Assembly: GCF_004010195.1 (NCBI RefSeq)
Contig: NC_057758.1
Span: 337,598 to 399,597, forward strand
DNA: 62,000 bases
Source: Chiloscyllium plagiosum
Taxonomy: Eukaryota
Direction of reading: 5' to 3'
The position numbers and the translations under genes were made by a program. How positions within the stretch are numbered: the first letter of the stretch is position 1; each line of letters starts with the position of its first letter. Of this stretch, positions 17,750 to 52,137 are shown in pieces. Below the pieces are notes generated by a model. The model was not told the origin of the DNA, ran no database searches, and saw only the letters and a program-made list of their open reading frames with translations.

Positions 17750-19075
17750 TTTGTGAAGCCTTGCAGCTCAGGTTAGTGCTCAGGTTGTACGTTTGCTCGC
17801 TGAGCTGTCGTGTTTGCTTTCAAATGTTTCGTGTCCATATTAACGTAACATCATCATGTGAAGTGATGCTCTGAAGGAGGGTTAGCTGCTTTGCGGTCCT
17901 TTTTCTCAGAGCGTGATAAATGGTGTCCAAGTCGATACGTTCATTGATGCAGTTCCAGATTGAATGCCAGGCTTCAAGGAATTTCGTTGTGTATCTCTGT
18001 TTAGCATGTTCTCGGATGGATGTCTTGTCCCAGTTGAAATGGTGTTATTCTTCGTCTGTATGTAAAGATGCTAGTGGTTGTGGATCATGTCTTTTGTAGG
18101 CTAGTTGGTATTAGTGCACCCTGATGTGGTTTTTTTTTTGCACTGTCTGTCTGCCGTAGCGATTTCTTTTTACAAACCTTGTATGGCATTTTTAAAATTA
18201 CATTCGTTTTTCTGTTTGTTGGTATAGATAATCTTTGATTTTTCAGTAGCAGTTTCACTGATTTGGTTAGGTTCGTGGGAAACCATGATGCCAAGAGGTC
18301 GGAGTACTATGTTAGTCACCACCGAGAAATCTGTGATGGATGTCAGAGCGGCTAGCGTTTCTGGACATGTTGTATCTACTTCTTTGGGTTTGTTGTTTAA
18401 GAATTCGGTGGACTGTGTTTATCGGGTACTTGATCTTCTTGAAAACGCTGTCCAGGTATTTTTCTTCTGTTCCTAGTACTTCCTAGGTGTTGCAGTGTGT
18501 TGCGTCCCGCTTAAATAATGTGATGATGCAGCTCAGTTTGTGGTTGTTGGGATGGTTGCTTCTGTCGCTAAGTATCTGGTCTGTGTGTGTTGTTTTCCTG
18601 TTGACCCTGGACTGCATTAATCCATTAATTGTTCGTTCCATTGTCGTCATCGAGGAAGAAACGTCTGTTGTTGTTTTCCTCCTCTTTTATGAAATTTATG
18701 CCAGTAAGGATGTTGAAGCTGATGTTGTAGGTTTCCTCTAATTTGTGATAACAACAGTGTCATGAGCGTAGCAGACCCAAAGATTAAGTTGAATAGTAGG
18801 GAGAGTTGTTCGTTCATGTCTTTGTATTAATTTTTCTGTGAAGAAGACTGATATTGGTGATCTCATGGTGGTTCCCTTGGTAGTTTTGAAGGTCTGTCAT
18901 TAAAGGAGAAGTGAGTAGTGAGTTCAAGTTGTACTAGCTTGAGAATATTGTCCTTGCTGATGAAGTCATATTTCTCTGGTGTTTGTGTCATTGGTTCGTC
19001 TTGGAGCGCATTAAGTGTTTCTTTTGCCAGGCTGATGTTAATTGATGTGACTACGGCTGTAACCTCAAAGAAATG
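17750..19075 (-). mobile_element. Penelope-like element (RT + GIY-YIG), second copy
   Basis: FEVTAVVTSINISLAKETL, LTTHFSFND, IPTNRKTNVILKMPYKVCKK; collinear with 15110-16440. Confidence 0.88.
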
Positions 19076-19132
19076 ATTGGCTATGAGATGAAGGATCTCA
19101 ATCAAGAATCTCAAAGTCAATGCATATCCCTG

Positions 19133-19270
19133 GTTAAAACTCACACAGCACCAGATTATAATCCAACAGGTTTAGTTGTGCTTCCAATTAAACCCGTTGT
19201 GCTATAACCTGATGTTGTGTGATGTTTGAATTTGCACACCCCAATCCAGCACCGGCATCTCCAAATCATG
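19133..19270. mobile_element. Decayed inverted pLTR mini-element (same family as 52169)
   Basis: ttaaaactcacacagcaccagattataatccaacagg followed by its reverse complement and the tail caccccaatccagcaccggcatctccaaatca. Confidence 0.75.
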
Positions 19271-19334
19271 AGACATACCTGATCACCGTTTCAATCACTA
19301 CATATATCTCATCTAAATCCGGTAATGTCAGCTT

Positions 19335-19460
19335 TTCCTGATGATGGGGTTATGCCTGGGAAGTCGACTCTCCTGTTCCGCGGATGCTGCCTGAGTGGCT
19401 GTGCCTTTCCAGCACCACACACGTCAAAGCTGATCTCCAACATCTGCAATTCTCACTTGA
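19335..19460 (+). mobile_element. Decayed Penelope pLTR with degenerate hammerhead (paralogue of 16550)
   Basis: CTGATGATGGGGTTATGCCTGGGAAGTC plus pLTR tail. Confidence 0.7.
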
Positions 19461-20130
19461 TCCTTGTTCATTATCGTGCAATTATAGATCTTTCCCTTCT
19501 GAATTTTTTCTTCAGGTTCGATCTTTCCCCATACAGGGCTGTTTTCATTGTCATCCCGTGAAATACGCTGCCTTTCTCACATAGAAGAGGTATTGGGCCT
19601 CCTGATATCATTTCACCAACCCCTTCCTCCATCCCGGACAAGTCTGGGACTATCTGGTTTAACATGGTCTTCTCACTGTCAGCGGCTATACTGGAGCTAT
19701 CATTCTTGTTGCAGGGTGGTAGTTCGATATTCAAGCAGGAACAGGGACAGTTTGACATCGAGTGAAGCTGTAGACGGTTTCTTTAAATGTGACCTGAACT
19801 TATGTACTGCTATTTCTGCCAGAACATTGGAAGATCGATGTTATGGAGCTGACTGAACGTGCTGAATGCAAATAAGTTTTAGGAAATATATGTATTCCCT
19901 GCTGGAAAATTTCATCTCATTATCCGTGATCAATACTTCTAGATAACTGTGTATCCAAATCTAAGCTCACAGCTTTGAAATCATCAGCCCTGAGTTTGCC
20001 AAATGATTGCTTTGCAATCAAATTACTTTCTATGGGAATCTAAGAAAATCCAAGAACATTGATTTATATTCGACGTGAAATCGAGTCCAGGATTAACCCA
20101 GGCATTTCCGTGAAAGTTGGCTCTGCCAGC

Positions 20131-20457
20131 ATTAGATTAGATTAGATTAGGTTACATTACAGTGTGGAAACAGGCCCTTCGGCCCAACAAGTCCACACCG
20201 ACCCGCTGAAGCGAAACCCACCTTTACCCCTACATTTACCCCTTACCTAACACTACGGGCAATTTAGCATGGCCAATTCACCTGACCCTGCACATCTTTT
20301 GGACTGTGGGAGGAAACCGGAGCACCCGGAGGAAACCCACGCAGACACGGGAAGAACATGCAAACTCCACACAGTCAGTCGCCTGAGGCTGGAATTGAAC
20401 CCGGGTCTAAGGCGCTGTGAGGCAGCAGTGCTAACCACTGTGCCACCGTGCCGCCCA
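20131..20457 (-). mobile_element. Young full-length V-SINE (HE1-like)
   Basis: (ATTAG)n tail, V-domain and tRNA head with A/B boxes; CATTAG repeated at both ends. Confidence 0.95.
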
Positions 20458-22549
20458 CATTAGTTTTGTACATATTGGCATTCTAGGCACTGGCCAACCA
20501 ACTCCATCAGTTAACACATCAACTTCAACCCAATTTACCAACCTTTGCGAAAAAGAACTGGAAATGGTGTCACCCACCTTCGGAGACCAAGACACATAAA
20601 TAATTAAAATGGACAGAACAGCTTGGACATTTTGCTATAATTAGTATTAACTGCACAAACTGCTCAGAGGAGGCCTGAATGGACGTCGTGCCTTTCATCT
20701 GTAATGGTTCCACAATTTACGTTCTCAGTCTGGTGTGCGTCTCAAGCAAATATCCGGGATGGATTCTGGACTGAATCTTGTTAACGACTGTTTCTGTAAT
20801 CACTGATGAAGCCTCGTGCAGCGTAATACAGCGCAGATACATATACGGTTTTGACCTCCGTGACCATTTAGCCAGAGATTTATTTTGTTTGATTCGTATT
20901 TGATTTAACAAATTGGTTTCACTGTGCCAAGGTGCATGCGTTTCCACTTTCCAGGATAGCGCTTGCCTGGATATCGAGTATGCGGTATTTTTACGAAAGT
21001 AAGGCCTTGTCGGATTTCTTTGCTGCCTCGAGTCCACATACCAGCAGGAACTAATGGCTTTATGGCCATGATCACGAAACATATTTTGGCCTTTCGGCTG
21101 ATGATCAGATTCGTTTTCGGGTTTTGCAGTGTGATGCACTATAGTCCTCTGCTCAGGGGATATCCTGCGTCAGTGTTTAAAATTGCTTACATTCAAATGT
21201 TATTCCAGAAGCTGAGTTGGACAAGTGAGTGTGTCCACTTCTATTGGGATGCCTGAGGTACCATGCTCTACTTGCCATGTTTTCTGATGACAAAGGAGTT
21301 GTAATCTTTGATTTAATTACAATTAGGTTTCAGCTGTTAGACGTTTTTGCATAGTTGCATCATTAATCCCAGACACCAGTCAGTCTGTCAACATCATATT
21401 GAGGACTACCCAAAATCTCATCACTTTTCCGGTCGTCCTAACTTCGTCAAAAATCTCAATGCTGATTCACTTGGTTCTCGAACTTCCAAATAAAACCAAC
21501 AGCATGTCAGAATTAGGGGAGGCTTGGGTACATAATAGTTATGAGCTAAATCCAGAAACTGTTGAAAGGCTTTATTACCTCGTGACTCAGGGAAAAAAGA
21601 CTTCCTAAGACCCGAAAAAAGCTCCTAGTCTACAAAGAGTCAGAAGAATTGTTCGCTGATATTTATCTGCCCTCAATGTCATTTGCCTGGAAAGAAAAAC
21701 ATGAATTCAGTCTGCATACTGGGCCCAGCCTGCAAAGGCAAAATCGAACGAGTCAACCTTCCCAAATAAATGCATGATACCAGAAACACTTCCCGCAATT
21801 AAAAGACAACTATTGGAAGGAAATTTTCCTCAGGCATTCACTGTTTTCTTTTATCACCACTGAATTAACTCCAAAAAGAGTACCTGCCATCAAGGTACCA
21901 TCAATTTACACGTGCACAACATCTAGATTCCGAGGAACCTGCTCAGGGCCAAATCATAGAATGGATAGCTTCTCTAATTTTCCTATTTAAATTTGTCATT
22001 CAAGGTTCTCTGATTGGTCAAGACTAGTGACCTAATCAAGGATCTCACTCTCAATGAGAACCATCTGGCCCTCCTTTCAAATCTTTACAGAGAAAGGACG
22101 TTCCAAACCAGTCAATTACACAATCGGTTTGAGAAGATCTAAAGAGCAACAATGCTGCACTTATATTGGTTAATAGACTTGCGAGAACGACGTACAAGAG
22201 AAAAAAATCTTCCAGAAGGATTAGTGAGAGATTACGATATTATAAAGTTATAGTAATGGGGAAACACCTGTTACTCAAATGTACATTATTGCATTTATAA
22301 TGTAAGTGACATAGAGATGACCAAGTAGTATTATTTCGGCACTTGATCGAGAGACCCACATCATGTTCTGGACATTTGGGTTTATATCCCACCACGGGAG
22401 ATGGTGGAATGTAAATTCAATAAAAACTATAATCTGGAATTAATAGTGTACTTATGACCATGAATCAATTGTCTACTGTCGGTAAAACCCACCTGTTCAC
22501 GAATGTCCTTGAAGAGAATGAGGCAGAATAGAGACAGTGAAAGAAAGAC

Positions 22550-22836
22550 TGCAGTGGTTAGCACTGCTGCCTCACAGCGCCTGAGACCCGGGTTCAATTC
22601 CCGCCTCAGGTGACTAACTGTGTGGAGTTTGCACGTTCTCCCCGTGTCTGCGTGGGTTTCTTCCGGATGCTCCGGTTTCCTCCCACAGTGAATTGGCTTT
22701 GCTAAATTGCCCGTAGCGTTAGGTAAGGGGTAAATGTAGGGGTATGGGTGGGTTGCGCTTCGGCGGGTCGGTATGGACTTGGTGGGCCGAAGGGCCTGTT
22801 TCCACACTGTAATGTAATCTAATCTAATCTAATCTA
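22550..22836 (+). mobile_element. Young V-SINE
   Basis: cagtggttagcactgctgcc...ggttcaattcc, V-domain, (AATCT)n tail; short internal deletion. Confidence 0.95.
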
Positions 22837-23429
22837 GAGGTTGTTCGGAGGGACTACAACTAGACAATGGCGTACCCTTAAAGGAAAGGTAATCCAGCAA
22901 TAATCGTGGCGCTTTGTGACACACTGGAAAGGTAGGACAAATAATTACGGAACACCTTGATTGACAAAGCAGCTAAGATAAAGCGGTAAGAATGTTTATG
23001 ACAGTTATCTGATACAAATGAGAATTGATAATAAAGTGGAAGAAAAAGGCGTCAAGGTGAGGTGAAAAAGCAAAGTAAAGAAAGAAAGAACACTTCTGAG
23101 AACATACCAGCAGCTAACATTTAGGCATATAAAAATTTTCCACGGGTATGCATTGTATTTTTCAGAAAAAGTGGCAAGCGGATGAGTAAATGTGATCGGC
23201 AAACAAAACACGCGTAAACAGAGGTCGTGCATTTTTTTTTAGCCTTGTGATGAGATGAAAAGAGAGCAGATGTGGCATCACAAAATAGGCAAGGTTGGAT
23301 GTTACATAAAGGACAGAATGAGATTGCAGACGTGCAAAGATGAGATGAACTAGTGGACACAAATCAGCCAGCTGGAAAAATGAGGTTGCAAAATGTCGAG
23401 CTGCTCAGTTTGTTTTAAAATATTAAAAA

Positions 23430-24070
23430 AGTAACAAGTGTTATTTCAACAGTGAGTCAATGCAAAACCTAGTGCTGCAGGTGGATTTAGATCTTCAGGC
23501 TGATGAGTTCCTAGAAGCTATTACATAAACAGAGAGAATAATGAAGGAGACTGATGGGGTGCGCTCCTTTATGATACGTTGGTGCGAAGATGAATGCATT
23601 ATTTTTAAGTTACGGAGGATATTTGAGAGACCCACACCAGGAATATTGCGTGCAGTTGTGTTTTGCTTATTGTCGGCAAGAAGCAAATGTGCCCGAGTTC
23701 ACACAGGGAGGGGTTTCCTGGATTGATCCCTGGAGTGAACGAGTTCTTGATGAGGAAGGGTGGGTACAAAAGATATGTACCCATTGATGTTTCAACAGCG
23801 GTGCGGGATTGTGAGGACCTGACTGATGAATGTAAGACTTCCAACTATCTGAACAAGGCGTACTTGGGTGGGGATGTCTCCTGGGGTGGGTCAGTCCAGA
23901 ATGACAGAGGCAAGTATTTACTGTGCAGGGTGGGGAGGTGGTTGGTTCTTCCTTTCAGAACATGTATCTCTCTGTCTCTCACACCATCCTCCACCCACCC
24001 CCACCTCCACCTCCACACCCCCGTATCTCCAAGGGTACTTCTGACTGTGGAACTTTCTGCACTTTGAGGC
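23430..24070 (+). mobile_element. Old CR1 RT 3' fragment
   Basis: gagacccacaccaggaatattgcgtgcagttgtg (RPH.EYCVQ-like) and downstream CR1-like sequence. Confidence 0.7.
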
Positions 24071-24095
24071 AGTGTAGGTTGGATATTATAGACTT

Positions 24096-24278
24096 TTGCT
24101 GAAAATGTGTGCTGGAACAGCGCAGCAGGTCAGACAGCATCCAGCGAACAGGAGAATCGACGTTTCGGGCATAAGCCCTTCTTCATAAGCTGTTCCCTGG
24201 ATGTTGTCTGACCTGCTGCGCTGTTCCAGCACACATTTTCAGCTCTGATCTCCAGCATCTGCAGACCTCACTTTCTCC
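24096..24278. mobile_element. Hairpin Penelope-derived mini-element with a hammerhead remnant in its loop
   Basis: 54-bp arms 24098-24151 and 24190-24243 (52/54 complementary). Minus-strand core (A)UGAAGA-A-GGGC(UUAU)GCCC-GAAACGUC at 24159-24186. TSD TATT(A/G)TAGACTT at 24084-24095 and 24279-24290. Confidence 0.85.
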
Positions 24279-24373
24279 TATTGTAGACTTCTGAAAATGG
24301 AAATGAACAAATTCGTGCAGGCAGAGGAACGGAAGGCTGTTGGAATCGGGTGAGAATTGGGAATTAGAAAGAC

Positions 24374-24658
24374 ACGGCACGGTGGCACAGTGGTTAGCAC
24401 TGCTGCCTCACAGTGCCGGAGACCCGGGTTCAATGCCTGCCTCCGGACTGTGTGGATTTGCAAGTTCTCCCCTTGTCTGCGTGGGTTTCCTCCGGTTGCT
24501 CTGGTTTCCTCCCACAGTCCATAGATGTGCAGGCCAGGTGAATTGCCCGTAGAGTTAGGTAAGGGGTACATTTAGGGGTATGGGTGGGTTGCGCTTCGGC
24601 GGGTCGGTGTGGACTTGTTGGGCCGAAGGGCCTGTTTCTACACTGTAAGTAATCTAAT
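24374..24658 (+). mobile_element. Young V-SINE
   Basis: cggcacggtggcacagtggttagc head, V-domain and tail. Confidence 0.95.
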
Positions 24659-24929
24659 AGAAACAGTGCGATTGTTAAAGAAAAGGCCCAAATAGCAAAA
24701 GGTCTGCTCTTTTCTGTTACATTTCTACCTCCAGCGATTGTGACTGAACGAGCTCTTCCTTGGAAACACCTCGTGGCTGTGATGCCGTTGATCCTAACAA
24801 ACCCATGAACTTAGTTTCTCTCTTTGAGATTCCTTCTCACTCCATTCATTTTGACCCCCCTACTGTTTATTCCTTCAAATGTGAAACATAATCCTCTTAG
24901 TTATTTTCTGAACGATCTGGAATAGGTTC

Positions 24930-25250
24930 ATCATTATCAAGCATTTACAGGTTTGTCTAAGACGAGGGGATATCAGTTTATCTTGTGGATTTAGTGGTTT
25001 CGAGGAAATTTGAAGCTTTTCACCTAGCTACAGCGTGGTAAAATATCGAAAATGCTGCATGAGGTGTGGTGAAGGCAGATAATATCACTACATTTAAAAA
25101 GCATCTGAATTAACACTTAATTTGGTGGGGCATAGTAGGCTATGTATCAAGTGCAGGTAAACTGAATAAGACAAATTTGGTGTTTATTGGTCAGCATAGA
25201 AACAATTGGCCAAAGGACATGTTTCTCTGTTGTATGATTCTCTGACTCCA
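24930..25250 (+). mobile_element. Old CR1 3' end
   Basis: tctaagacgagggg...ggccaaaggacatgtttctctgttgtatgattctctgactccatg tail. Confidence 0.7.
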
Positions 25251-25850
25251 TGTTTTGTTCAGTGAAATAATATGTTAACATTAGATTGATAAGATCATTT
25301 CCCTCTCGACACCTGGATGCCATCAGCGGGGATTAAATTCCGTCATCCCATGATGACCATTCCTTCTCGACCTTTTCGCTTACCATTTAGTTCAATGTAA
25401 ATCAAGACGGGTCTCACGACCGCTATGAAACATCCTCTCATGGAAAGTGACAATATACCTGTTATTACACTCAGTGACATGTACATACATGATTTTTGTT
25501 TTCCATACTCTGTGTAAGAGGTACACTATTTGGAAACGAAGTTCTGGCTCAAATCCAAGAAGAATAAATCAGAATTACAAAATTGGAATATTATCACGAA
25601 TGCACTGCTGTTTGTGAAACTTTTTTTCTGGTTTCTGGTTATCTCAATGAGGGGAAGCGAATGCTCTCCTGCCGCTACATGTACAAAGCATGTTGGTTGA
25701 GATACACTTGCTGAATATGTTTGTTCAGATACTTCATTAATGTCTGTCTGCAGGGAACTTTTTCTTGTCGCTGGGGATATCTCATCTTCTCTTTATAAGG
25801 GAGACTTTCAAAATGTGATCTTATTGCATCGAGGAAGCCCTTAGCTTTGG

Positions 25851-25862
25851 CATAAAAAGGGG
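25851..25862 (+). promoter_or_regulatory. Candidate TATA-like box (CATAAAAAGGGG) for the GPCR gene
   Basis: CATAAAA variant 36 bp upstream of the first in-frame ATG and 81 bp upstream of the strong-Kozak ATG at 25932; position is the only evidence. Confidence 0.35.
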
Positions 25863-25886
25863 TCAGCATCTCTCAGAGAAAGAGCA

Positions 25887-26112
25887 ATGATTGGTCATAA
25901 CCCGGGAATAAAACACTGGAATGTAACAGCAATGGAATCCCATCTTTGGACAGCAGATTGGAGTTCAACAAAAATGAACAGGGGATTCCCCTCACAAATC
26001 GCCTATTACATTAGAAATCAGCATTGGATGACAGTCTACTACCGAATACGATGCGTACTCCTGCTGTTTCAGCACGTTTACTATCCCTTACTTGCTGCTG
26101 TTGGTGTCTTTG
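25887..26112 (+). CDS. gpr139-like: Exon 1 of GPR139/GPR142-like class A GPCR (N-terminus + first half of TM1)
   Basis: MIGHNPGIKHWNVTAME...FQHVYYPLLAAVGVF ends at a consensus donor TTTG|GTAAGT (phase 1). NVT glycosylation sequon. Alternative start GCAATGG at 25932. Confidence 0.88.
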
Positions 26113-26599
26113 GTAAGTCTATCGGTCCAGTGAATTCAGGTCCATGAAATGAAGTTGAGGAGTAAATCAAAAGAAGAGAAATAAGCAGTTTAGACGTTTG
26201 TGATGACCACGTGCTGCCTTAAAGGGACTCGTCTGCGTGGACGTATGCTTTGTGGTACATAGTGATACAATAACTGGGGATTCAATTCTGACATCCCATG
26301 AGCGTTTCTTACTTCCCGATTTTTTGCCGTACCATTTATATCAATCTGAGACCAAGATGAGTTTCAATACCTCTATCAAATCTCCTCTCTTGGAACCTGA
26401 GCATGTATTGCTATCAAATCTGCTCTCCTGTAACGTGCCCATGTATCGATTATCCCCATCCTGATCTCTGTTCCAGTTTCTGATGAAAGATCCCCCAACG
26501 CTCCACATTGTAAGTGGCTTTAATCTGAACCCGTGCTCACCAATTCGACTTGCAAAAAATGTATCACTTCTTGCTTTTAAAGCTTAATATCATGGATAT

Positions 26600-26985
26600 T
26601 AGACTCACGGTTTCTTGGATACAGACATCCACTTCCTCCACCAATGACACATTATAGCAGCAGTGTGTACTATCTACAGGGTTCACTGCAGAAATTAATC
26701 AAAGATCCTTAACCAGCACCTTTCAATAACCTTGGGACTTCCCTTTAGATGGACAAGGGCAGCAGATGCGGGAGATCACCATCATCCTGACTTGGAAATA
26801 TATCAGCCATCTCTTCAGTGCTGTTGACTCACAACCTGAAAACTCCCACATTAATAGCATTGTACTGTCAATATCACAGAGACTGCAACAGGTTAAGAGG
26901 GCAGCTCATCACAGCTATCTTCTCGGATCAAATACAAATGAGCAATGAAATTGCTGGCCGGCCAGGGACGCCCAGGTCCAACAAG
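26600..26985 (+). mobile_element. Old LINE 3' fragment (family also at 28530-29060 on - and 40850-42500 on +)
   Basis: gcagcagtgtgtactatctacagg...caccatcatcctgacttggaaatatatc...ggttaagagggcagctcatcacagc; matches the other copies in this window. Confidence 0.65.
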
Positions 26986-27025
26986 TATATAAAAATAAGA
27001 TATGAATCGAAGATTGGCATTGGTT

Positions 27026-27340
27026 GGCGGCACGGTGGCACAGTGGTTAGCACTGCTGCCTCATAGCGCCAGAGACCCGGGTTCAATTCCCGCCTCAGGC
27101 GACTGACTGTGTGGAGTTTGCACATTCTTCCCGTGTCTGCGTGGGTTTCCTCCGGGTGCTCCGATTTCCTCCCATAGTCCAAAGATGTGCAGGTCAGGTG
27201 AAGTGGCCATGCTAAATTGCCCGTAGTGTTAGGTAAGGGGTAAATGTAGGGGTATGGGTGGATTGCGCTTCGGTGGGTCGGTGTGGACTTGTTGGGCCGA
27301 AGGACCTGTTTCCACATTGTAAGTAATCTAATCTAATCTA
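27026..27340 (+). mobile_element. Young full-length V-SINE (intronic)
   Basis: Complete head with A/B boxes, V-domain and (AATCT)n tail. Confidence 0.95.
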
Positions 27341-27699
27341 AAAAAATGTTATTGTATTGTGTCTGCTAAAGTGCCCTGCTTCTTTCAATAATGTATGCAA
27401 AGAGGACTGGAAAACCAAACTTTAATCTTACACATTTTCTGATTGATTTTTCTTTCCTGCAAAAATAAATTGCAGGCGTTATTTGTCATTTGTCCTCCTT
27501 TTCATTCCAAGGTTCAACGCCATGGTCATGTTCAGAAATTATGTTCCTGTGGGGTGCTGACCTTTCAAAGTGTTGCCAAAACCTACATCGCCACAAAACC
27601 TTCTGATTGTGTCATCCATGCCAGTTAACTCAACAATGGAGTCTGTAAAGATTACTAAGACTGCCATTGAGTATTGAGTAACAGGAACTGATTGCCTCA

Positions 27700-27980
27700 G
27701 GAGTTCAGTTGAAGAGTCACTGCACCCGAGATGTTGACTCTGTTTTGCCTCTACAGATACTGCCAGAGCTGCTGAGTTTCTGTAGTCATTTCTGCTTTCG
27801 TAAATAATTGCCTTCTCACAGTCGAACCAACAAAACCAATAAAAAAAAACAGAAAGAACTGGAGAGTCTGGAAAAGAGAAGTAAAACCAAAAGTAGTCGT
27901 GCAACTCAGCAAGTCTGGCAGCAACTGTGGTGAAAAGTTGGAGATAACATTTCAGCTCAATTGACTCTTCTTCAGAACCA
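27700..27980. mobile_element. Decayed Penelope pLTR pieces in opposite orientations
   Basis: + copy gaagagtcactgcacccgagatgttgactctg...; - copy whose reverse complement reads CTGAAGAAGAGTCAATTGAGCTGAAATGTT (degenerate hammerhead-like). Confidence 0.5.
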
Positions 27981-28221
27981 CTTCTAGCATTATTGAAGAA
28001 TTAATTTTAATATATGTGAGTACTCTCTGCAACATTTACCTGGGACATGAGTCCTTATTATATTGTTGCCTTAATATCCTTATGTATTTACATCTTCATA
28101 ATTCTGGAGTCTGTTTCCCATTACATTACATTTGTTTATTTCTCTGATGGAACGTTGATGTCGTTGGTTGGGATGAGAATTTATTGCCAGTTCCCAATTG
28201 TCGTTTTGGCAAAGTGTATAG

Positions 28222-28529
28222 ATCAGATTCTTCTATACTGTGGAAACAGGCCCTTCAGCCCAACAAATCCACGTTGCCTGTCCGAAGACTAACACACTCA
28301 GGCCCATTTCCCTCTGACTAATACACCTAACATTTTGGGCAATTTAGCACGTCCAATCCACCTGACCTGCACATCTTTGGACTGTGGTGGGAAACCGGAG
28401 CACCCGGAGGAAACACATGCAGACACGGCGAGAATAGACAAACACCACAAAGACAGCCACACGAGACTGAAGTCGAACCTACATTCTTGGCGCTGTAAGG
28501 CAACAGGGGTAACCACTGAGGCACGGTGC
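28222..28529 (-). mobile_element. V-SINE (older, intronic)
   Basis: gtggaaacaggcccttcagcccaac...ggaaaccggagcacccggaggaaac. Confidence 0.9.
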
Positions 28530-29060
28530 ACTGCCTTCTTTAACCACTGAAGTCCACAACATGGACAGGGAACAACAACGTCACGCGGAGGGAATTCCCG
28601 AATTTTAACACAACAATCCTGAAGGAACGGCTGATATATATCCAAGTCAGGAAAGTGAGTGGCTTGTAGAGAATCTTGCAGGTGTTGGCGTTCTTATGCA
28701 CATGCGTCCTTGTCGTTCGAGATCAAAATGTTCATGGGTTTGGAAGGTGCTATATCAGATTCTTAAGTTAATGTATGGGGGTGAATCTGTTCGATAGTAA
28801 ACACATCTGCTCCTGAGATTGATAGTGAAGGGTGTGGATATTTGTGGAGGTGGTGCTAAGTAAGTCACATCTTTTTTTTTATTCCTGGAGTCAACCTTCT
28901 TGAGTGTAATTCAAGCTGCATCTATTCAGGTAAGTGGTGTATATTCTATGTCAGTCCAAACAGTGTCCTTTCAACAGCTTTGGGGCATTCATGAAATCAA
29001 TAACTCGCTGCAGGATTCCCAAGTTCATGTAGCTGCTGCATTTTCGGGCAATTCCAGATT
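28530..29060 (-). mobile_element. Old LINE 3' fragment
   Basis: Reverse complement of the 26600/41400-type sequence (atatatccaagtcagg, tttggaaggtgc). Confidence 0.6.
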
Positions 29061-29374
29061 AGGGTGAATGATAACCAAGTCTTAATACTGCAAGCAGTCA
29101 AATTTAGGTGCAGTAAATAAAAACATCACTGTATGCAGTCAGAGTTTCCATGAAGTTAATGCACTTCCCCCAAACATGAGTCCTTCCTCCCAACCTGTTG
29201 TGCGGTTTCTCTGGTATGTTCTATTCTTCAAAGTCGACTTCAGGTACAGAGGCTTTCCCCACTGGACCAGAACTCTCTCAAAGCAGTCAATGGGCTCATT
29301 GCACAATCAGCAGATGCAGAAACAGTGTCAACTGAATGTGCTGTACGAAACAGGAGTGGGGACAAGAGTCCGGT

Positions 29375-29490
29375 TTACTGAAGAACTGCCTGGACCAGAA
29401 GCATTATATCTGTTCCTCTCTCCACAGATGCGGCCAGACCCGTTGAGTGTTCTTTCAGTCATTTCTGTTTTCGCTTCAGATTTCCAATTT
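29375..29490 (+). mobile_element. Decayed Penelope pLTR
   Basis: ctgaagaac...ctctctccacagatgcggccagacccgttgagt...tttctgttttcgcttcagatttcc. Confidence 0.5.
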
Positions 29491-30547
29491 ATTCTTCTAT
29501 TTTCACTGTCTCATGTTTTAATCTGGCACAAGAGAAGCAGGGAGGGGAGAAGCGTGCAGATCGAGGAATATTATTGAAAATTAGCCTTTACTTTTATGGC
29601 TAAAATTGAGTTGTGTCTATTGGAGTTTCAAAGAGTCAAAAGTGAAATGTAAGAACTCCAAATGTGACCCACCTGCGTGAATTTGAGAAGGAGACTTCCC
29701 TCATTCTTTTGTTGGACTTAGAGGGTCTAAATATTTTTCCAAGTAAATGTTGAAGCAAAATTCTTAAATTCAAAATCAAGCATATCGAGGGACATGAGAT
29801 GCAGACTTGGAGAAGAGACTGTAATGCAGGTCTTGCAACTCAAGCGTTATGAGTCGCATACAATCAATAGAGCTCAGTGAGCGGCAAATCAACACATGAA
29901 ATTTTGAAACTGTTGATCTGCTATAATCCATTTCTAAATGATGGCTGGCACTGATACCAGGAATGGAGGGATTGGGCTGAACAAATACCCTTATTACAAG
30001 ATCCCTTCACATTGTGCAAATAACAATATGAAATACTCATACCTTTTCTCAGCCAGAGGAATCTCATATTTTTTTATCTTGTAATCCATTCAGTGAACAT
30101 GATAGATGTTCAAATACCATCTGTGCTTTCGGCATGATTATATGGAATGCAGGAAAGAGCTGCACCACTAATTTTGTTGGTTCAGTAAAGTGAGAACTTT
30201 GGTGCCTACATTCCTGCCTTATCTTATCCCGTCAGTCTACTTCCAATTATCAGCTAAGTGTAGGCCTATTGTCTTTAGTGACATGTTCACTGAGGACTAG
30301 TGAGTTTTCTTGTTCTGTCCTTCACACAGAGACGGGAGTGTGATATTGGAAAAAAACAGGACAGGTCAGTCAGCATTCTAGGAGCAGGGGAATTGACGTT
30401 TTGGGGAAAAGCCGAAAAGTAAGTTACATCATGGCAATACTTGAGAAATTCAGCAGGTCTGGCAAAATATGTGCATGGAGACAGAAACAGAGTTCAGTTA
30501 CATCACAGTCCTACGCCATATCCTTCAACTGTGACCACCTATCTAAC

Positions 30548-30590
30548 AGACACACACACACGCATGCGCGCACACACGCGCAGACGCACA

Positions 30591-30651
<61 letters not shown>
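30548..30651. repeat. (CA)n microsatellite in the GPCR intron
   Basis: Interrupted then pure CA run. Confidence 0.97.
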
Positions 30652-30653
<2 letters not shown>

Positions 30654-30970
30654 CCCCATCTCTGGTTGTGAACTCGAACAGTTATCGGGGACCTTCATCT
30701 TGCAAACGCCTGCCTAGTCATCTTTCAATTCGGGCACGGATCTCCTTTAGGTTATGAAATATAAGGCCAGTATGACTTAAATATGCACAAGGACTCTTGC
30801 CTCCACAACAGTTTGTGGCAAGGAGTTTGATGGACACAAGAGAGAAACCAGCAAACCTTCTTAAATGTGCATCTCTTATTTTGGAGGCTATGTCACTCTC
30901 AATACTGTCATTGTAATGTACGATTTTAAAATGATGTATAATTTCCAGGTTTTATTGCGCTTTCCCACAG

Positions 30971-31989
30971 TTAACATACTGGCGATTGGAATCTTATCTC
31001 GGGCTAAGTGCGGTATATCCAAATGTGTAACCCGGTATCTGGTGTTCATGGCAATGGCAGATCTACTGGTCAACATCTTTGATCTGATATTGAGGCACAT
31101 TCCAATTGTTTATTTGTCAAAATTTCTTTTTGTGAAGTTCATTCCGGTGTGCAACATCCATGCCATTCTTGTCTATGCAGCTACGGACTCTTCTGTCTGG
31201 TTCACTGTCGCTTTCACCTTCGATCGATTTCTGGCCATCTGTTGTCACAAACTGAAACACAAATATTGTAACGGGAAAATTGCATCAGTTGTTTTGGGAA
31301 CAGTCATGGTACTCAGCTGTTTAAAGAATATTTTCTGGTATTTCATGTTAACAAGTCAGTATCGGCTAAAGAATATTCCTTGGTTTTGTGAGTTAAGATC
31401 GGGTCTTAAATTCTCTAAATTTTGGGGCACAGTTGAAATCACTCATCATCTTCTAAATCCGTGGTTGCCAATTCTTTTGACAGTGTTGTTTAATGCTTTA
31501 TGTATAAGACAAATTCTAGTTGCCAACAGAACCCGTAGGAGACTCCGGACACTCAGCAAGGGAAAGACTGTCACAGATCCAAAAATAGAGAATCGAAAGA
31601 AATCTATAATTTTACTGTTTCTCATCTCGGCCAACTTCTTACTGGCATGGGTAGTCATTATGGTTTATTCAATTTGGTACCGGGCGAGGTTATTAGGACA
31701 GAAGTTAATATTTCTCCATTATTTTGTTCGGGAAATTGGATACATCTGCCAGCTCACCAGTTGCTGCACAAATATCTGTATTTATGCTGTGACATTAACC
31801 AAGTTCAGGGAGCAGATGTATGATATACTCAAATATCCAATTGCTATCTCACGAAAATTATTTAATGAAATAAAAAAGCAGTTAAAAAGCAAGAAATCGG
31901 TTATAAATCAGATTCACTTGCCTTTTGCATGGCCTCAGAAAGAGAAACCAAAGGGGGTCAGTGAGCACAAATCAGCATGTGGTAATTAA
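30971..31989 (+). CDS. gpr139-like: Exon 2 of GPR139/GPR142-like GPCR (rest of TM1 to C-terminus); spliced product 414 aa
   Basis: Acceptor TTTATTGCGCTTTCCCACAG| in phase 1 (G+TT = Val). VNILAIGILSRAKCGISKCVTRYL, MAMADLLV (TM2), SVWFTVAFTFDRFLAICC (TM3), RKKSIILLFLISANFLLAW (TM6), SCCTNICIYAVT (TM7), KFREQ (helix 8). No internal stop. Confidence 0.93.
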
Positions 31990-32239
31990 ACACAATGAAG
32001 TCGGTCTATTCTTCCCCTTGGTCAGTGATATGCACGCAATATGATCACTCTGTTCTCTCGGTTTCTGCTACATTTGTGTGTTGCTTTGTTTGCATGCCCA
32101 AGATTCATATTCCAATCTCCTCTGCATCCTCTCCCACATTATCACATCCTTCACATGCTGTGGTCTTCCATTTGTCACCTAACAAATGTTGTACACAGCT
32201 ACATCCTAACATGCTTGTTCATGTGCTCAGTCCGTCACT

Positions 32240-32245
32240 AATAAA
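32240..32245 (+). terminator. Candidate polyadenylation signal AATAAA
   Basis: First AATAAA downstream of the stop, followed by T-rich sequence. Confidence 0.35.
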
Positions 32246-32559
32246 GGCCATTATAAGAAATCACTTCTGATCTTCTTTCTGTATCTTTATGGCTGCCTTC
32301 AAGGATTCATACAAACATTCCCCTGCTCATCTGTAATTCCTGATGTCCCGCCATTCAGCATGTACTCTTATGCCTTCTGAACACTCACAATTGTGTATCA
32401 CTCACTCTGATCCATTTGCCACGGTTCAGCCTTTCTCAGTTGTTCTGTGTTCAATGGATATCTTCCTCATTAAAAAGCCGCCCATCTTTAATCTCTGGAA
32501 CATTGATGCATAAACCAATCAACAAGTGACACGGTAATGACACCTATGGTACACAACTG

Positions 32560-32790
32560 GACACAACGTTTCACCCAGAAATGCACCCTGCCTGTTCGAA
32601 CCGCTCACTGTTGATCTCCTGCTTCTTTTGCCCTGTCCCTGGCTCCATCGGGAACCACATACACTTTGTCTATCCTGAGCACTCCGAATTGATCTCTTGC
32701 CTGTACCTCACCGTCACTGCTCCACAGAACTCCATAGAAATCTTGTCTGTCCTAACACCATACTATTGATCTCTTGCCAGTTTTACTGTT
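32560..32790. repeat. Old ~78-bp tandem repeat (about 3 copies)
   Basis: TTGATCTCYTGC recurs at 32611, 32689 and 32766 with alignable intervening sequence. Confidence 0.6.
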
Positions 32791-33009
32791 CACATTTTCT
32801 TTCGTATTCTCACCACAACTTGAACAGCACTGCTATGCCTAAACTACTCAGACAACGGCACAGATAATATTTAGGTTCATAATCTTCCAAGGGGGAGCGT
32901 TTCCTCCCAGTTAGCGAGAGAGTATGGGTCTTTATCAACAGAGTTTCATTTTGAGCGAAAGTTTGGGCATTTGAACTAAAATGGTAATCAATCACTTACA
33001 GGGGGCAAA

Positions 33010-33439: not shown

Positions 33440-35700
33440 CGAACTGTAACAATGTTTATGCTGTACCACAGGCCTCCCATCAGTGAACGTGAGATATACA
33501 TACACTATGTAAACTGATAATGGAAAGATATATGAGCAACAGAGTGGTGTAGATAGGAAATTTTAAATTATCAGCTATTGACTGGGATTCGGTTAGATGG
33601 TATAGATCGAGAAAAATATGTAAGGTGAATGGAGGGGGATTTCCTCGAACAGTATGTCAATACTCCAATTCAGGAAGGGGTTATGCAGGGCATGGCGTTG
33701 GGTAGTGAGCCCGGTCAGGTGAGCGAGGTTTCAGAAAGGGATTAATTTGTGAATAATGATCCTAATTCCATAAAGTTCAGAGTACTCTTGGAAAAAGATG
33801 AGAGCGGTCCGAAAGGAAGAATGCTACATTGAGAAGAGGACAACTGTAGCAACATTCTTCACGAGCTGGGAAATGTGAATGGACTCAGCGTATTAAGGGT
33901 AAATTCACAATTGCTATGTGTGAGGATTTTAACGAGAGTTTGATCAGAGAGCAGTACTGACATGTTCCAGTGAAAATGAAGATTAAAAATGGCAAGACAG
34001 GGAACCATGGATTTCAGGTGAAATTGTGAAACTAGTTGTGAGAAAAAAATGAAGCATACATAAGGACCAGGCGATTGAAAACAGACGAAGTTTTGGAAGA
34101 ATATTGGCCAAGCTGAAACGAGGAATTAAGAGGGTTGAAAGGTAACATGAAAATTTTTTAGATGGCAGGATTAAGGAAAATCCCAAAAATTTTTAGTCGT
34201 ATATAAGAAGCAAGAGGGTAACGAAAGAAGGAATTTGCCATTCAAGAATAAAGGAGGACAGTTATGCGTGCACTCGAGAAAATGTGTGGGATTCCTAGTG
34301 AGAATGTTGCATTGGCATTCACCAAGGAGAGGGACATAATGGATGTTGAGGTTTGAGATAGATGTTTGATTGCTCGAGATCAAGTAGGCGTAAGGAAGGA
34401 GGAAGTGTTGTGTATTGATAAAGGCATTAAGGTATGGATGGGATCTATCCCAGGTTGCTGGTAGAAGCAAGAGAGAAAATAGCCGGTACCTTCAGAGATA
34501 TCTTTGCAGCATCCTTGAACTCGGGTGAGATCAAGGAGGATTGGAGAATTGTTTAAACTGCCTCCTTGTTTAGAAAGAAAGCAGCGGTAATCCAGTTAAA
34601 TATAAAACAGTGAGCCTGATGTCAGGAGTACAGAAGATGTTGGAGAAGATGTTGAAAGGTCGGGTCGCTTTACATTTGGAAGAAAATTGGTTCAACAGTG
34701 ATAGACAAGAGTGTTTTGTCCAAGCAAGGTCATATCCTACGAACCTAATAGGATTGTTTGTGGAAGTTGCAAAGTGCGTCGATGAGGGAAGAGCTGCAGG
34801 ATTCACATAAATGGAGTTAAGTAAGACGTTTGATGCGGAACCCCATGGTCAGCTGATAGAGGAAGTTACGTCACGTGGGATACAGGTTGCAAGAGCTTGA
34901 TGGTTAGAGAGCTGGTTTAGCAGCAGGAGACAAAGAGTTGTAGTAGAAGGGAGTTTTTGAAATTGAGAACTTTGGCAGAGGCGTTCCACAGGCGTCTGTA
35001 TTGGGACCACTGTTATTTGTGATACACATAAATGATAGGGAGGAGGATCTAGTTGGCCTGATTAGCAACTTTGCATATGTAACTCAGACAGGTGCAGTAG
35101 CAGATAATGAAGGGGACTGCCAGAAAATGCATCAGAATATAGAGATCTTACAGAGTTGGGCAAAGAAATGGCAGGTGGAGATCCATCCTGGTAACTACGA
35201 GGCGAAGCAGTTTGGAAGATCGAATTCGAAAGCCACGTATATGCTAATTGGAAATGCCCTGGGGAAAATTCATCTGCAGGAAAATCTGGCTCTTCAGGTC
35301 CATTATACCGTGAAGGTGGCAACGAAGATCGATAAAGTGGTCAAAAAGGCATCTAGGGCCTGCTTTCTTTCATAGGATGGGGTATTGAGTACAAGGATTG
35401 GCAAGTCAGGTTATAGATGCAGAGGACCTTGGTTCAGCCACGTTTGGAATAGTCGCATAGTTCAGGTCAACACACTCCCAAAAGAATGGGGATGCTTTGG
35501 AAAGGGTGCAGAGGAGGTTCGCAAGATATTGCCTGGTACGGACGGTGCTAGCTATGAAGATAGTTTGAGTAGGTTAGAAATATCTTCATTAGAAAGAGGA
35601 AGATTGGGGGTACCTGATTGAGGTCGACAAAATCAAGAGAGGTAAAGACAAAGTGAATTCCAAGAAGCTTTTTTTCCAGAGAGGGTGACTCAATTTCACA
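33440..35700 (+). mobile_element. Degenerate CR1 ORF2 (APE-RT)
   Basis: YHRPP, IKENPK, ARSYPTNLIGLF, GPLLFVIHIND, ISNFAY, LQSWAKKWQ; many stops. Confidence 0.9.
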
Positions 35701-37770
35701 TATTTAAGTGCATTGTGTGGCTTTAGTTAGTTGATGTAAAGCTAAGGCTTACAATGGCAGGGGACTGCAGACCTGTGACATGTGCGTCTTGCTTGATGTG
35801 ATATATCAGGGAAGAGGCTGACGTTCCTGGCTGTTAATTGCAAAAAGTGTGTCCACCTTCAGCTCAAGATTGACAGCATAATGGCTCTGGATCTGCGGAT
35901 AGACTCACTGTGGAGCATCCTGGAAACTGATGAGATCGTGGATAATACATTAATTGAAATGGTCACACTGCAGGTTAGAATTGCAGTTGGAGACTGTGAA
36001 TAGGTGACAAAAAGGCAAAAAAAGAGTCGTGAGGCGGTGCCGGTGGTGCCTGCAGTCATCTCCCTCCAAAACAGATATACCGTTTTGGATACTGTTGGGG
36101 TGATGGCTCACCAGGGGAGGAAAGCAGTTGCCAGTATCATAGCAGCGTGGCGGGCACTGTTGTTCAGAAGGGCTGGAAAAAGACTCGTACGGCCATATTG
36201 ATATGGGGATTCTATTGTAAGGGGAGGAGATGGCGGTTCTATGGCAGACAATGAGACTCCCGGCATGGTATGTTGCTTCTCAGGTGCTCGGGTCAGGGAT
36301 GTCATCTATCGGCTACAGAGCATTCTAAAAGGGGAGAGTGAACAGCCAGTTGTCTTGGTGCATATACACACTAACGATATAAGTAAAACATAAACAAGAT
36401 GAGGACCTGAAAGCAGAATTCAGGGAGCTAGGAGAGAAGTTAAAAAGGAGGGCCTCAAATGTAGTGATCTCTGGATTACTACCAGTGCCATGTGTTAGCC
36501 AGCGTAGAAATGAAAGAATAGGCAGGATGAACACGTGGCTTGAGGGATGGTGTAGGATGGAGGGGGTTCAGATTTGGACTTTGGGACTTTTCTGGGGAAG
36601 TTGGGACTATTACAAATTGGACAGTATACATCTGAACCAGACTGGAACCAATATCCTCTGGGGAGTTTTTCCTCCTGCTGTTTGGCAGATTTTAAACTAA
36701 TGTGTCAGAGGTCTGGGGAACAGAAGAGAAGATAAGTAGAAAGCGAGCTGGAAACTGGAAAATGTAAGAATCATGAATTTTATATTAATAAGGGGAAGGG
36801 TAGTCAGAGAGCAGATGAACACAAAAGAGCTGGTTGACAGAAGTGCATATATTTTAATGCAATAAGTATGGTGGGTAAGGCAGATGAATGTAGGACTTGG
36901 ATTGGTGCTTGGGAGTATAATCTTTTTGCAGTCACATGGACTTCTTTGAAGGAAAAACATGATTGGCAACTAAATGTTTTAGGAAAGATATGCTTCAGAC
37001 AGGACAGGGAGGGAAGTTAAAGGGGGGGTGGAGTTGCATTGCTGGTCAGGGATGTCACTTAGTGCCAGAGGTCTGAATGGGGCAGAATTAGTAAAAAAAA
37101 AGGGTCCAGGAGAGTTTTCTGGAGCAGTATGCCAATAATCCGACGAGGGAAGGGAACACATTGGACTTGGTGTTGGGGAGTGTGTCGTGCCAGGTTGTAG
37201 AAGTTGCGAGGAGATTTTCTGGTAATAGTGACCTACATTCTGTAGGTTTTAGAATACTTGTAGACAAATATGAGAGTGGTCCTTAGGAAAGAGTACAAAA
37301 CTGGGCCAAGGCCAATTATATCAAAATTAGGCAAGAGCTGGGAAATGTGGATTGGGCACAGGTATTTGAAGGGAAATACACATTTGATACGTGGGATGCT
37401 TTCAAAGATAGGTTCACAGTAGTGCAGATAAGCATGTCAAGTTGAAAGCAAAGGATAGGAAAGGCGAGATTCGTGAACTGTGGATGAAAGAAGAAATCGT
37501 CCAACTAGACAAGAGGAAAAAGGAAGTGCAATTATATGGTCCAGGCAGCTAAGAACAGAACGGACTCTGGAGGAATGTCGGAAGAGTAGGACCAGTCTTA
37601 AACGAGGAATCAAGGTGAAGATGTATCTAGACAGATAAATGAATAAGCCAGGAGCAGAGGGACACAGATCCTGAGAGCATTAGAGACAGGTTAAAATAGA
37701 GGATCTGGATTGGCGGTGGCTTCGAGGTTGGAAGAGCCTCTTCTTACGCTGGAATTTTCCTTGTAATTGT
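35700..37770 (+). mobile_element. CR1 5' part (ORF1 Cys-motif + SGNH esterase, APE start) fused to a CR1 3' end
   Basis: ISLQNRYTVLDTV, GDSIVRG, VCCFSGARVRDV, VISGLLPVP, DSIHLNQTGTNIL; APE GGGVALLV; 3' end at about 37615-37770. Confidence 0.88.
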
Positions 37771-38500: not shown

Positions 38501-39463
38501 ATTACGTTAATGGATTGCCATTGTTGAAGAATCTTCCTTGCTTTTGTGAATGAATAGTCATCACGATTGGGTCTCCAGTCTGAGACACGGTGAACCTCTT
38601 CCACCACATTCTAACTCTATTCTGCCAGTCATCCTGATTCTGCTGCTCAAAGCATTCACTGTCAGGCAAATTTTAGAGACCAGTCGAGCCCGCAGCAGAC
38701 TCTTGGCTCAAAGCTATGGCTAGGGGACCAGGAACACAGAGTTGCAGACTCGAAGGAAATCGATAAGTTTGCTGTTGTGTTCGCAGCCAATTTCATTTTT
38801 TGAGTCATAGAGTACTACAGCACCGAGTCAGGCCCTTGGCCCAACAGGTTCATGCCGAAAAACGTGCACCCACAGTAAACTCATTTCCGTACACTTGGCC
38901 CGTATCTTTCTAAATTTTTCCTGCATTTGTCCAAATGCCTTTTAAATGTTTCTTTGATGTCCCAGCCTAAGCCACTTGCACTGGCAACTCATTCCATTTG
39001 CGTACCACATCTTGCAAAAAAAAACAGTAGCACGTCAGTTAGCCGTTTATTCATTCCCCTCTAACGTTAAATTGACGCTTTTTATAGTCCTCAATTTCAC
39101 AAACCTGGGCAAAAATAAAGACTGAGTGCATTCACCCTATCCATGCATCTCATGATCGTATTCACTTCTATAAGATCCCCCCCTCAGTCTCCTATGTTGT
39201 AAAGAAAGAAGTCCTCGCTTGTCTTATAAATATTTTTCTAAACTTTTTCCAGTTGAATAATACTTTTTCGATAGCAAGCTGAGAAATACTTAATTAAATA
39301 CTCCGGGTGCAGTCTCACCTAAATTCTATACAACTGCAACAAAACTTGCCGATTTCTACACTCAGTGCCATGACTGATGAAGGGCAGCAGGCAACAGTCT
39401 CAGTTCTGTTCAATTTCTCATTTCATTCCAAATGCAGTTAGGGAGGAAGGAGACATTGCAGCC
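38501..39463 (+). pseudogene. GPR139-like paralogue remnant (ECL2-TM5-ICL3-TM6, plus ECL3/TM7 start), interrupted by CR1
   Basis: 38521-38800 translates, with stops and frameshifts, as LLKNLPCFCE*...DTVNLFHHILT / LPVILILLLKAFTVRQILETSRARSRL...TRRKSISLLL / AANFIF. The intact gene reads RLKNIPWFCE...GTVEITHHLLN / LPILLTVLFNALCIRQILVANRTRRRL...NRKKSIILLF / SANFLL. 39422-39463 gives FIPNAVREEGD vs FLHYFVREIGY. Confidence 0.88.
38802..39392 (-). mobile_element. CR1 3' fragment inserted in the GPCR pseudogene
   Basis: Reverse tail gagtcatagagtactacagcacc...ggcccaac and decayed reverse CR1 RT 3' sequence. Confidence 0.85.
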
Positions 39464-44334: not shown

Positions 44335-44645
44335 AACCTGTGCAGAGAGACATGAGAACACCATAGGCTGAAAACCCCCGTTAACTCTCACACACCACAA
44401 CTCCAACTTGAACTCCTTCATTCGCTGTCACTATTTTATCCTCATCTGTCTTTTTCTTTTTGTACATTTGTCTTTTAAATCTAATCTAATCTAATCTAAT
44501 CTAACCTGTGCAGAGAGACATGAGAACACCATAGGCTGAAAACCCCCGTTAACTCTCACACACTACAACTCCAACTTGAACTCCTTCATTCGCTGTCTCT
44601 ATTTTATCCTCATCTGTCTTTTTCTTTTTGTACATTTGTCTTTTA
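44335..44645 (+). repeat. 143-bp direct duplication separated by (AATCT)5
   Basis: 44335-44477 vs 44503-44645, 2 mismatches; insert 44478-44502. Confidence 0.95.
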
Positions 44646-51229: not shown

Positions 51230-51329
51230 AAGGAATGAGTATACTTGTTTTCAATGTTACCTGAACGCTGCTGTGGAAGGTGTATTCAGAAGTTCACACA
51301 GTCGTTAAATACAGCATTCGAAATAGAGG

Positions 51330-52137
51330 TGTCATTGCAAAGGAAAGTCACATCACAACTAGCCGGAATAGAGAATCGACGATTTAGACATAAACTCTCA
51401 GCTTCCGTTAAAGATGGAAATACAATATGTTTGCAGAATTGCAATGGGTTTAAAGACGGACTTTTACTGCTTTTTCTCATCACAAATATCGCCTCAACAA
51501 ATAGCAGACAATCGTAATTCTGAGGCGTCTTTAGATCCGCCTTAAAAAGTAATTGCCACCTTTCTAAAATTGGTTTGTTGCTTCCGAGATCTACACAACT
51601 GTGGGATATGAACCCTGATCTACTGGATTAAAGATAGAGAAACATCCATGGCACCATTAGAGCTATCAATAGCTTGCATGCTACTGTTATGTCTTTAAGA
51701 ATAGCTCAATGTGAGAAAATCAGCCGGAGACTGTTTCTGTCATTGCAAAGGAAAGTCACATCACAACTAGCCGGAATAGAGAATCGACGATTTAGACATA
51801 AACTCTCAGCTTCCGTTAAAGATGGAAATACAATATGTTTGCAGAATTGCAATGGGTTTAAAGACGGACTTTTACTGCTTTTTCTCATCACAAAGATCGC
51901 CTCAACAAATAGCATACAATCGTAATTCTGATGCGTCTTTAGATCCGCCTTAAAAAGTAATTGCCACCTTTCTAAAATTGGTTTGTTGCTTCCGACAATT
52001 GTAGGATATGAACCCTGATCTACTGGATTAAAGAAAGAGAAACATCCATGGCACCATTAGAGCTATCAGTAGCTTGCATGCTACTGTTATGTCTTTAAGA
52101 ACAGCTCAATGTGAGAAAATCAGCCGGAGACTGTTTC
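51330..52137. repeat. Tandem duplication, 408 bp + 400 bp
   Basis: 51330-51737 vs 51738-52137; about 8 substitutions and one 8-bp indel. Confidence 0.95.

Follow-up and report, generated by a model that had tools for sequence, protein, structure and literature searches.

A two-exon receptor gene of Chiloscyllium plagiosum very probably belongs to a large and apparently undescribed GPR139-related family of cartilaginous fish

GPR139 is a brain-restricted receptor that responds to L-Trp, L-Phe and peptides related to adrenocorticotropic hormone (ACTH) and melanocyte-stimulating hormone (MSH). Its human and zebrafish forms are 70% identical, and the residues given for its agonist pocket are E108, F109, H187, W241, R244 and N271 (PMC7318219). 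GPR139 and GPR142 have been placed as sister to the protostome receptors for MIP/sex peptide, FMRFamide, myosuppressin and RGWamide, and for the wider clade the suggested ancestral ligands are peptides with aromatic C-termini (PMC8557429). A study that sampled no shark places three gene sets, from coelacanth, gar and fish, beside GPR139/142 as GPR210A/GPR210B and lists no amphibian in them (PMC6504862). For cartilaginous fish a scarcity of receptors coupled to G proteins (GPCRs) has been stated (PMC8455134), and the chemoreceptor families of a catshark are small, with 2 canonical and 6 OR-like, 3, 3, 2 and ~35 V2R/V2R-like genes; GPR139 goes unmentioned in the main text of that account (PMC11979771). 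Here we analyse a gene at positions 25887..31989, on the + strand, of a 62,000-nucleotide stretch of Chiloscyllium plagiosum DNA (NC_057758.1, 337,598-399,597), which we call the window. The best explanation overall, to which we give about an even chance, is that the encoded receptor is one sensor of a large cartilaginous-fish chemical-sensing repertoire.

The gene consists of two coding exons and one intron, in which there are repeats, among them an (AC)n array at 30546-30651. Coordinates refer to the window:

25887..26112, + strand: coding exon 1; 226 nt of coding sequence, phase 1; codes for the extracellular N-terminus and the initial two thirds of transmembrane helix 1 (TM1)
26113..30970, + strand: intron, phase-1 GT-AG, 4858 nt; splits the codon before N1.50
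30971..31989, + strand: coding exon 2; 1019 nt; remainder of TM1, then TM2-TM7, helix 8 and C-terminal tail; Pfam 7tm_1

The donor (G/GTAAGT) lies at 26112/26113 and the acceptor (CCCACAG) at 30970/30971, and the joined exons encode 414 amino acids (aa) with 0 internal stops. This is the two-exon structure with both junctions in phase 1 that a preliminary description of the DNA had proposed, and the relatives bear it out: shark gene models (e.g., P0104) align to the gene as two collinear blocks whose meeting point is the junction, and exon 1 is matched by the profile hidden Markov model (HMM) of the family with an independent E-value of 2.7e-7, the best value in the reversed window, used as a control, being 3.9. 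Exon 2 is matched by 120 of 120 relatives, and 71 tblastn matches begin within 25000-25999. Moreover, two unnamed environmental gene calls, P0099 and P0118, contain a pyrimidine-rich read-through immediately before the residue at which exon 2 begins, which indicates that their acceptor position is the same. The preliminary description was also right that the list of open reading frames (ORFs) splits and mis-starts the gene, as the ORF of exon 2 begins at the intronic ATG 30865. A single-exon gene starting from that ATG was excluded, as it would be without the conserved first part of TM1, and so was a rival acceptor AG at 30947-30948, which is 22 nt upstream of the proposed site and out of frame. 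We regard the gene anatomy and the family membership of the receptor as close to certain. The intron of GPR139 lies at the same codon.

The receptor is predicted to be a class A (rhodopsin-like) GPCR. A Pfam scan returned 7tm_1 only (46.8 bits, cut-off 30.5, E 3.6e-12), and a structure model of exon 2 is a helical bundle with a predicted local distance difference test score (pLDDT) of 88 and a predicted template modelling score (pTM) of 0.81; an earlier model, built with 76 close relatives, had a pTM of 0.41. Fold-search matches of the model are class A receptors, not separated from one another. Among the class A anchors, N1.50, D2.50, C3.25, DRF and P5.50 are kept, P6.50 is replaced by V and position 7.50 is I, and TM7 carries NxxxY without Pro. 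The loss of P6.50 is family-wide: the Pro is kept in 0 of 38 members of the subclade of the receptor and in 6 of 42 members of other subfamilies. The family is also marked by intracellular cysteines that are conserved at two positions of intracellular loop 1 (ICL1) and at three of ICL2 (window 30997-31270); a role in attaching lipid or binding metal is possible.

Among solved receptors, GPR139 ranks as the nearest relative of the receptor at every search depth, with E-values of 7e-5 for the single sequence and of 2e-13 and 2e-41 for profiles. With the shark-only profile it scores 53 bits against 35 for the next receptor, and with the broad profile, which includes outgroup rows, 145 bits, NTSR1 following with 107. 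The kinship with the GPR139/GPR142 group that had been proposed from the DRF and N-x-x-x-Y motifs is thereby supported. Like the receptor, GPR139 has two exons (PMC7318219), H5.43, W6.48 and, in TM7, a Pro-less NxxxY; unlike it, GPR139 is single-copy, is without C3.25, uses E3.32, R6.51 and N7.39 and keeps P6.50. When the agonist pocket sites of GPR139 are mapped by hand, the receptor has V, Y, H, W, I and Y. H5.43 (labelled 5.42 when a script counts from P5.50) and W6.48 are identical and F3.33 is conservatively replaced by Y, whereas E3.32, R6.51 and N7.39 have become V, I and Y. Because this polar trio is replaced, the aromatic amino acid pharmacology that the preliminary description had cited for the mammalian receptors should not be transferred.

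It could still be argued that the gene is the shark orthologue of GPR139 or GPR142 and senses aromatic amino acids, for GPR139 ranks first among solved relatives, the databases use the name 'probable GPR139', and the pocket retains H5.43, W6.48 and, as Y, F3.33. We consider this extremely improbable, as identity, pocket and naming already contradict it. Identity to GPR139 is ~30% across the best 124 residues (hand count), compared to the 70% between human and zebrafish GPR139; P6.50 is lost along with the polar trio, and C3.25 stands where GPR139 has Asp. Moreover, three other bony-vertebrate lineages share the same automatic name. No true GPR139 or GPR142 sequence was recognised in three protein searches and a representative search. 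Low identity, three lost pocket residues, the lost P6.50 and the many paralogue contigs described below thus indicate a divergent, multicopy cartilaginous-fish paralogue rather than an orthologue, in line with the earlier proposal.

A protein search with the receptor recovered 970 clusters (90% identity) at E<=1e-3. Among the best 120 of them, which are 54-63% identical to the receptor, 118 are shark-named; Heterodontus francisci accounts for 65 of these and Heptranchias perlo for 32 (hand count). No database protein is more than 63% identical. With a profile, 134 representatives were recovered at E<=1e-30, many being fragments. The more distant family representatives examined name shark, ray, skate or Callorhinchus in 20 of 22 cases and no species in the other two. 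Judged by these sequences, the family is confined to sharks, rays and chimaeras among the matches checked. Its ICL1 cysteine motif is present in 114 of the 120 near matches and in 30 of 42 members of other subfamilies, and in none of the proteins outside the family (0/21 amphibian/sturgeon, 0/114 teleost-type, 0/7 others), so that its earlier reading as a family mark stands. The receptor nests in the family clade and has the ICL1 cysteine motif, the phase-1 intron in TM1 and the N-terminal repeat of the family.

In the C. plagiosum genome the paralogues are very many. Contigs and reads of the same species label were compared over 30660-32800, a 2.1-kb segment on the acceptor side; the runs termed X1 and X2 are DNA-like, and one X2 contig crosses the acceptor unspliced. 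In two runs, 122 and 187 contigs align to this segment, and the near-copies among them are 94-98% identical to the receptor gene. Summed depth over TM3 is 12,379 and 39,844, compared to 16-32 in the unique flanks of X2, values that do not represent a copy number. The window itself holds the remains of one further copy, 6.5 kb downstream of the gene:

38521..38777, + strand: decayed second family member, extracellular loop 2 (ECL2) to TM6; stops and a frameshift; HMM independent E-value 6.5e-14

No exon 1 or TM1-4 matching this decayed copy was found nearby. A second trace at 21034-21318, seen by tblastn at E 0.002 only, was not confirmed by HMMs and was rejected.

A careful tree was built from 42 rows; 49 of the 91 rows of a quick tree, the long-branched P0261 among them, were not used. 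In the careful tree the 30 family rows group together as a clade (support 97/90), and their sister consists of amphibian and sturgeon proteins (100/99). The quick 91-row tree agrees with both the family clade and this sister. The subclade of the receptor is recovered with 100/100 support in the careful tree. Neither tree contains true GPR139 or GPR142 rows, and the root and the position of these receptors are not fixed by them. The sister proteins (P0234, P0280-P0299; e.g., XP_069092602.1 of Pleurodeles) are labelled 'probable GPR139' and are 66-74% identical to each other across amphibians and 25-29% identical to the receptor. When a salamander protein was used for the search, 20 of 25 matches were amphibian clusters, each from a different species, and 21 of 25 with the sturgeon; there is one cluster per amphibian species, within which copies more than 90% alike would be hidden. 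The amphibian/sturgeon gene shares C3.25 with the receptor, and the salamander protein also shares an ICL3-TM6 motif. Unlike the receptor, it keeps P6.50, K6.51 and N7.39 and is without the ICL1 cysteine motif. The combination of a basic residue at 6.51 and N7.39, as in GPR139, is kept by the amphibian gene and a teleost-type lineage, but not by the subfamily of the receptor. Tree and searches suggest that the family arose from a single GPR139-related orphan gene, of which amphibians and sturgeon still have one copy.

Outside the family, three bony-vertebrate lineages and amphioxus supply the best full-length matches, nearly all of them named 'probable GPR139'. Besides the amphibian/sturgeon gene, two further GPR139-related lineages occur in ray-finned fish and coelacanth (P0267, P0308-P0420; P0239, P0247). 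The three bony-vertebrate lineages may correspond to the GPR210 sets, with the two of ray-finned fish and coelacanth as candidates for GPR210A/B. An Atlas feature search with the receptor gave matches that include Srw-bearing clusters. In nematodes and molluscs, Srw-like genes have expanded as chemoreceptors. Compared to the receptor, the protostome neuropeptide/Srw-like receptors are distant and have endogenous neuropeptide ligands, and the expansion described here is a separate one, in vertebrates.

The distribution of variation across the protein is what suggests a function. Entropy is 1.5-1.9 bits in the loops and the N-terminus and 0.25-0.9 bits in the helices. Across 42 members of other subfamilies, the entropy of 23 pocket positions is 2.73 bits versus 1.41 bits for the other TM columns (permutation p<1e-4), a contrast inflated by the structural motifs that these other columns include. 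Within the subclade of the receptor, a sample chosen by similarity to the receptor, the values are 0.56 and 0.68 bits (p 0.37). In this subfamily a charged network is nearly fixed (D2.57, R2.61, H3.28, D3.37, E5.39, H5.42, R6.59, E7.36 and Q7.42), and variation is located at the rim (5.43, 6.58, 7.32 and 7.35), in the loops and in the N-terminus. We propose that the family may serve chemical sensing as a repertoire, every subfamily having a fixed pocket of its own for one polar ligand class. The charged network of the receptor subfamily would anchor a shared polar ligand core, and rim, loops and repeat-bearing N-terminus would tune the selectivity of the paralogues. The aromatic-C-terminus peptides attributed to the ancestors of the wider clade make peptide-like or amine-bearing ligands the first guess, and the core would probably be of this kind. 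The likeliest site would be sparse sensory or epithelial sentinel cells, for example in nose, taste organs, skin or gut, and the likely output, by analogy with GPR139 only, would be Gq/11 and calcium. The OR, TAAR, ORA/V1R and V2R repertoires likewise have many copies, dead copies and pocket variation between subfamilies; the family studied here differs from them by a Pfam match, in the receptor, to 7tm_1 only and by the coding intron in TM1. That the family is a multi-ligand repertoire appears fairly probable on sequence grounds, and that it performs external or luminal chemosensing is a claim to which we lean a little less than halfway.

A different assignment would give the family a sentinel role in innate immunity or at barriers, where it would work in the manner of formyl-peptide or Mas-related receptors and, in leukocytes, skin or gill, detect microbial or damage peptides. 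The birth-and-death pattern would be the same, the variable loops and N-terminus would fit, and the ancestry is that of peptide receptors (PMC8557429); cartilaginous fish are described as being without MAS1 and its relatives, so that the niche would be open (PMC8455134). We consider this assignment unlikely, if worth keeping in mind: no immune gene was found among the 39 window ORFs scanned, and with epithelial sentinels as the cells concerned it would overlap with a sensory role. Quite improbable, in our judgement, is internal signalling, in which neuropeptide or metabolite receptors of brain, endocrine or reproductive tissue would have been duplicated in repeat-rich regions. The brain-restricted expression and the ligands of GPR139, L-Trp, L-Phe and ACTH/MSH-related peptides (PMC7318219), are in favour of it, as is the fact that the window otherwise consists of retroelement debris, but hundreds of intact paralogues with subfamily-specific pockets would exceed what endogenous ligands usually need.

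Several observations weigh against the proposed chemical-sensing repertoire and the place of the receptor in it. Besides the inflated pocket contrast and the similarity-chosen sample, immune or endocrine repertoires would agree with variable pockets no less than sensory ones would. GPR139 is not among the fold-search rows listed to rank 50. From two single-cell runs of one sample (X5 and X6), shares of 2% and 6%, too small to test expression, contained 0 reads from the gene. Finally, the receptor differs from the consensus of its subfamily at 26 of 153 conserved columns, where the 75 defining members have a median of 5 and a maximum of 13 such departures and 7 representatives have 6-41, and in its near-copies a changed residue results from 18 of the 26 listed variant letters, one of them at R6.59. 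Together, these departures and variants suggest that constraint on this copy may be weak.

The flanks and the two ends of the coding sequence show further features:

25794..25799, + strand: TATAAG, a TATA-like box upstream of the first in-frame ATG (distance 93 nt); presumed function
25887..25973, + strand: two degenerate copies of a ~14-aa N-terminal repeat, the first with sequon N12
31872..31877, + strand: A6 run, A5 in contigs of two other samples; sets 414 versus 379 aa
32240..32245, + strand: candidate poly(A) signal AATAAA; presumed use

The 5' flank at 25767-25886 aligns with the read-through N-termini of the Heterodontus models P0071 and P0013, which suggests that the promoter is conserved between paralogues and species. 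Of the earlier claim of a 414-aa protein from the first ATG, the stop-free frame stands, but length and start are uncertain. In-frame ATGs of exon 1 lie at 25887, 25932, 25974 and 26028. The offset of ATG 25932 is the commonest start among annotated relatives (n=14), followed by those of 25887 (n=8; offsets 63-64) and 25974 (n=7), and the offsets are spaced by the N-terminal repeat, which occurs in 0-4 copies across the family and in two worn copies here. The start codon appears ambiguous. Only the first ATG includes N12, the sole extracellular N-glycosylation sequon of the receptor. At the other end, the A5 form of the run at 31872-31877 accounts for a depth of 18.3 out of 18.3 in X2 and for only 5.3 out of 35.6 in X1. 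With one A fewer the frame stops after 379 aa, counted from the first ATG, and the tail shrinks from the 64 aa of the window to 29 aa; the family median is 24 aa (115 of 120 relatives measured). Either an allele or an assembly slip accounts for the 64-aa tail, and the seven helices are unaffected. Another one-base length difference between window and contigs, in a base run at position 30811, is likewise a polymorphism or an assembly slip.

Tail indel variation, the long terminal branch of the receptor (0.5), its 26 consensus departures, the mostly residue-changing variants of its near-copies and the dead neighbour at 38521-38777 would all agree with a recently relaxed or silent duplicate, whose frame is open and which is drifting towards a pseudogene. 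This is distinctly unlikely in our view. Both exons, canonical splice sites, the TATA-like box and the poly(A) signal are present, and the departures are mostly hydrophobic swaps that leave the charged pocket network in place. Moreover, as no database protein is more than 63% identical, lineage distance alone may explain the branch. An intact sensor of a chemical-sensing repertoire remains our preferred reading of this copy.

In the rest of the window, 4 of 39 ORFs match Pfam, all with retroelement-type domains, and no host gene other than the receptor was found among the 39 ORFs scanned. Retroelement debris at 14-4240, 34947-36700, 56960-57340 and 61537-61998 comprises endonuclease, reverse-transcriptase and GDSL-like ORF1 pieces, including a reverse-transcriptase fragment without a Pfam match which, from its motif, we take to be gypsy-like. 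A 168-nt unit is tandemly duplicated and near-perfect (98% match) at 44335-44645. At 51239-52056 there is a near-identical direct duplication of ~400 nt with repeated ORF translations; one of its ORFs was scanned, without a Pfam match. A 26-base satellite upstream of the gene was not found in 18000-27000.

No description of this cartilaginous-fish expansion was found in the literature searched, most subscription papers lying outside that search. Proteins of the family are already in the databases under the automatic name 'probable GPR139'. The family is apparently undescribed and very large, with the receptor as an ordinary member; new are a sister gene of single copy in amphibians and sturgeon, the analysis of pocket positions and the doubt about the tail of this copy. 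What the locus contributes is a clean gene model, with tail and start codon insecure. It is possible, if on the doubtful side, that the family is a fifth, independently evolved chemoreceptor family of cartilaginous fish, larger than OR, TAAR, V1R and V2R together and derived from a single orphan, with this gene as one of its sensors. The reputed poverty of sharks in GPCRs and ORs (PMC8455134; PMC11979771) fits badly with their reliance on chemical senses. The presence of at least 65 clusters at 90% identity in one species, from the nearest subfamily alone, would alter the picture of GPCR-poor sharks, and would do so whether the family serves smell, taste, gut sensing or immunity. As the amphibian sister is single-copy, knowing what it binds and where it is expressed in Xenopus would give a pointer to the ancestral role of the family.

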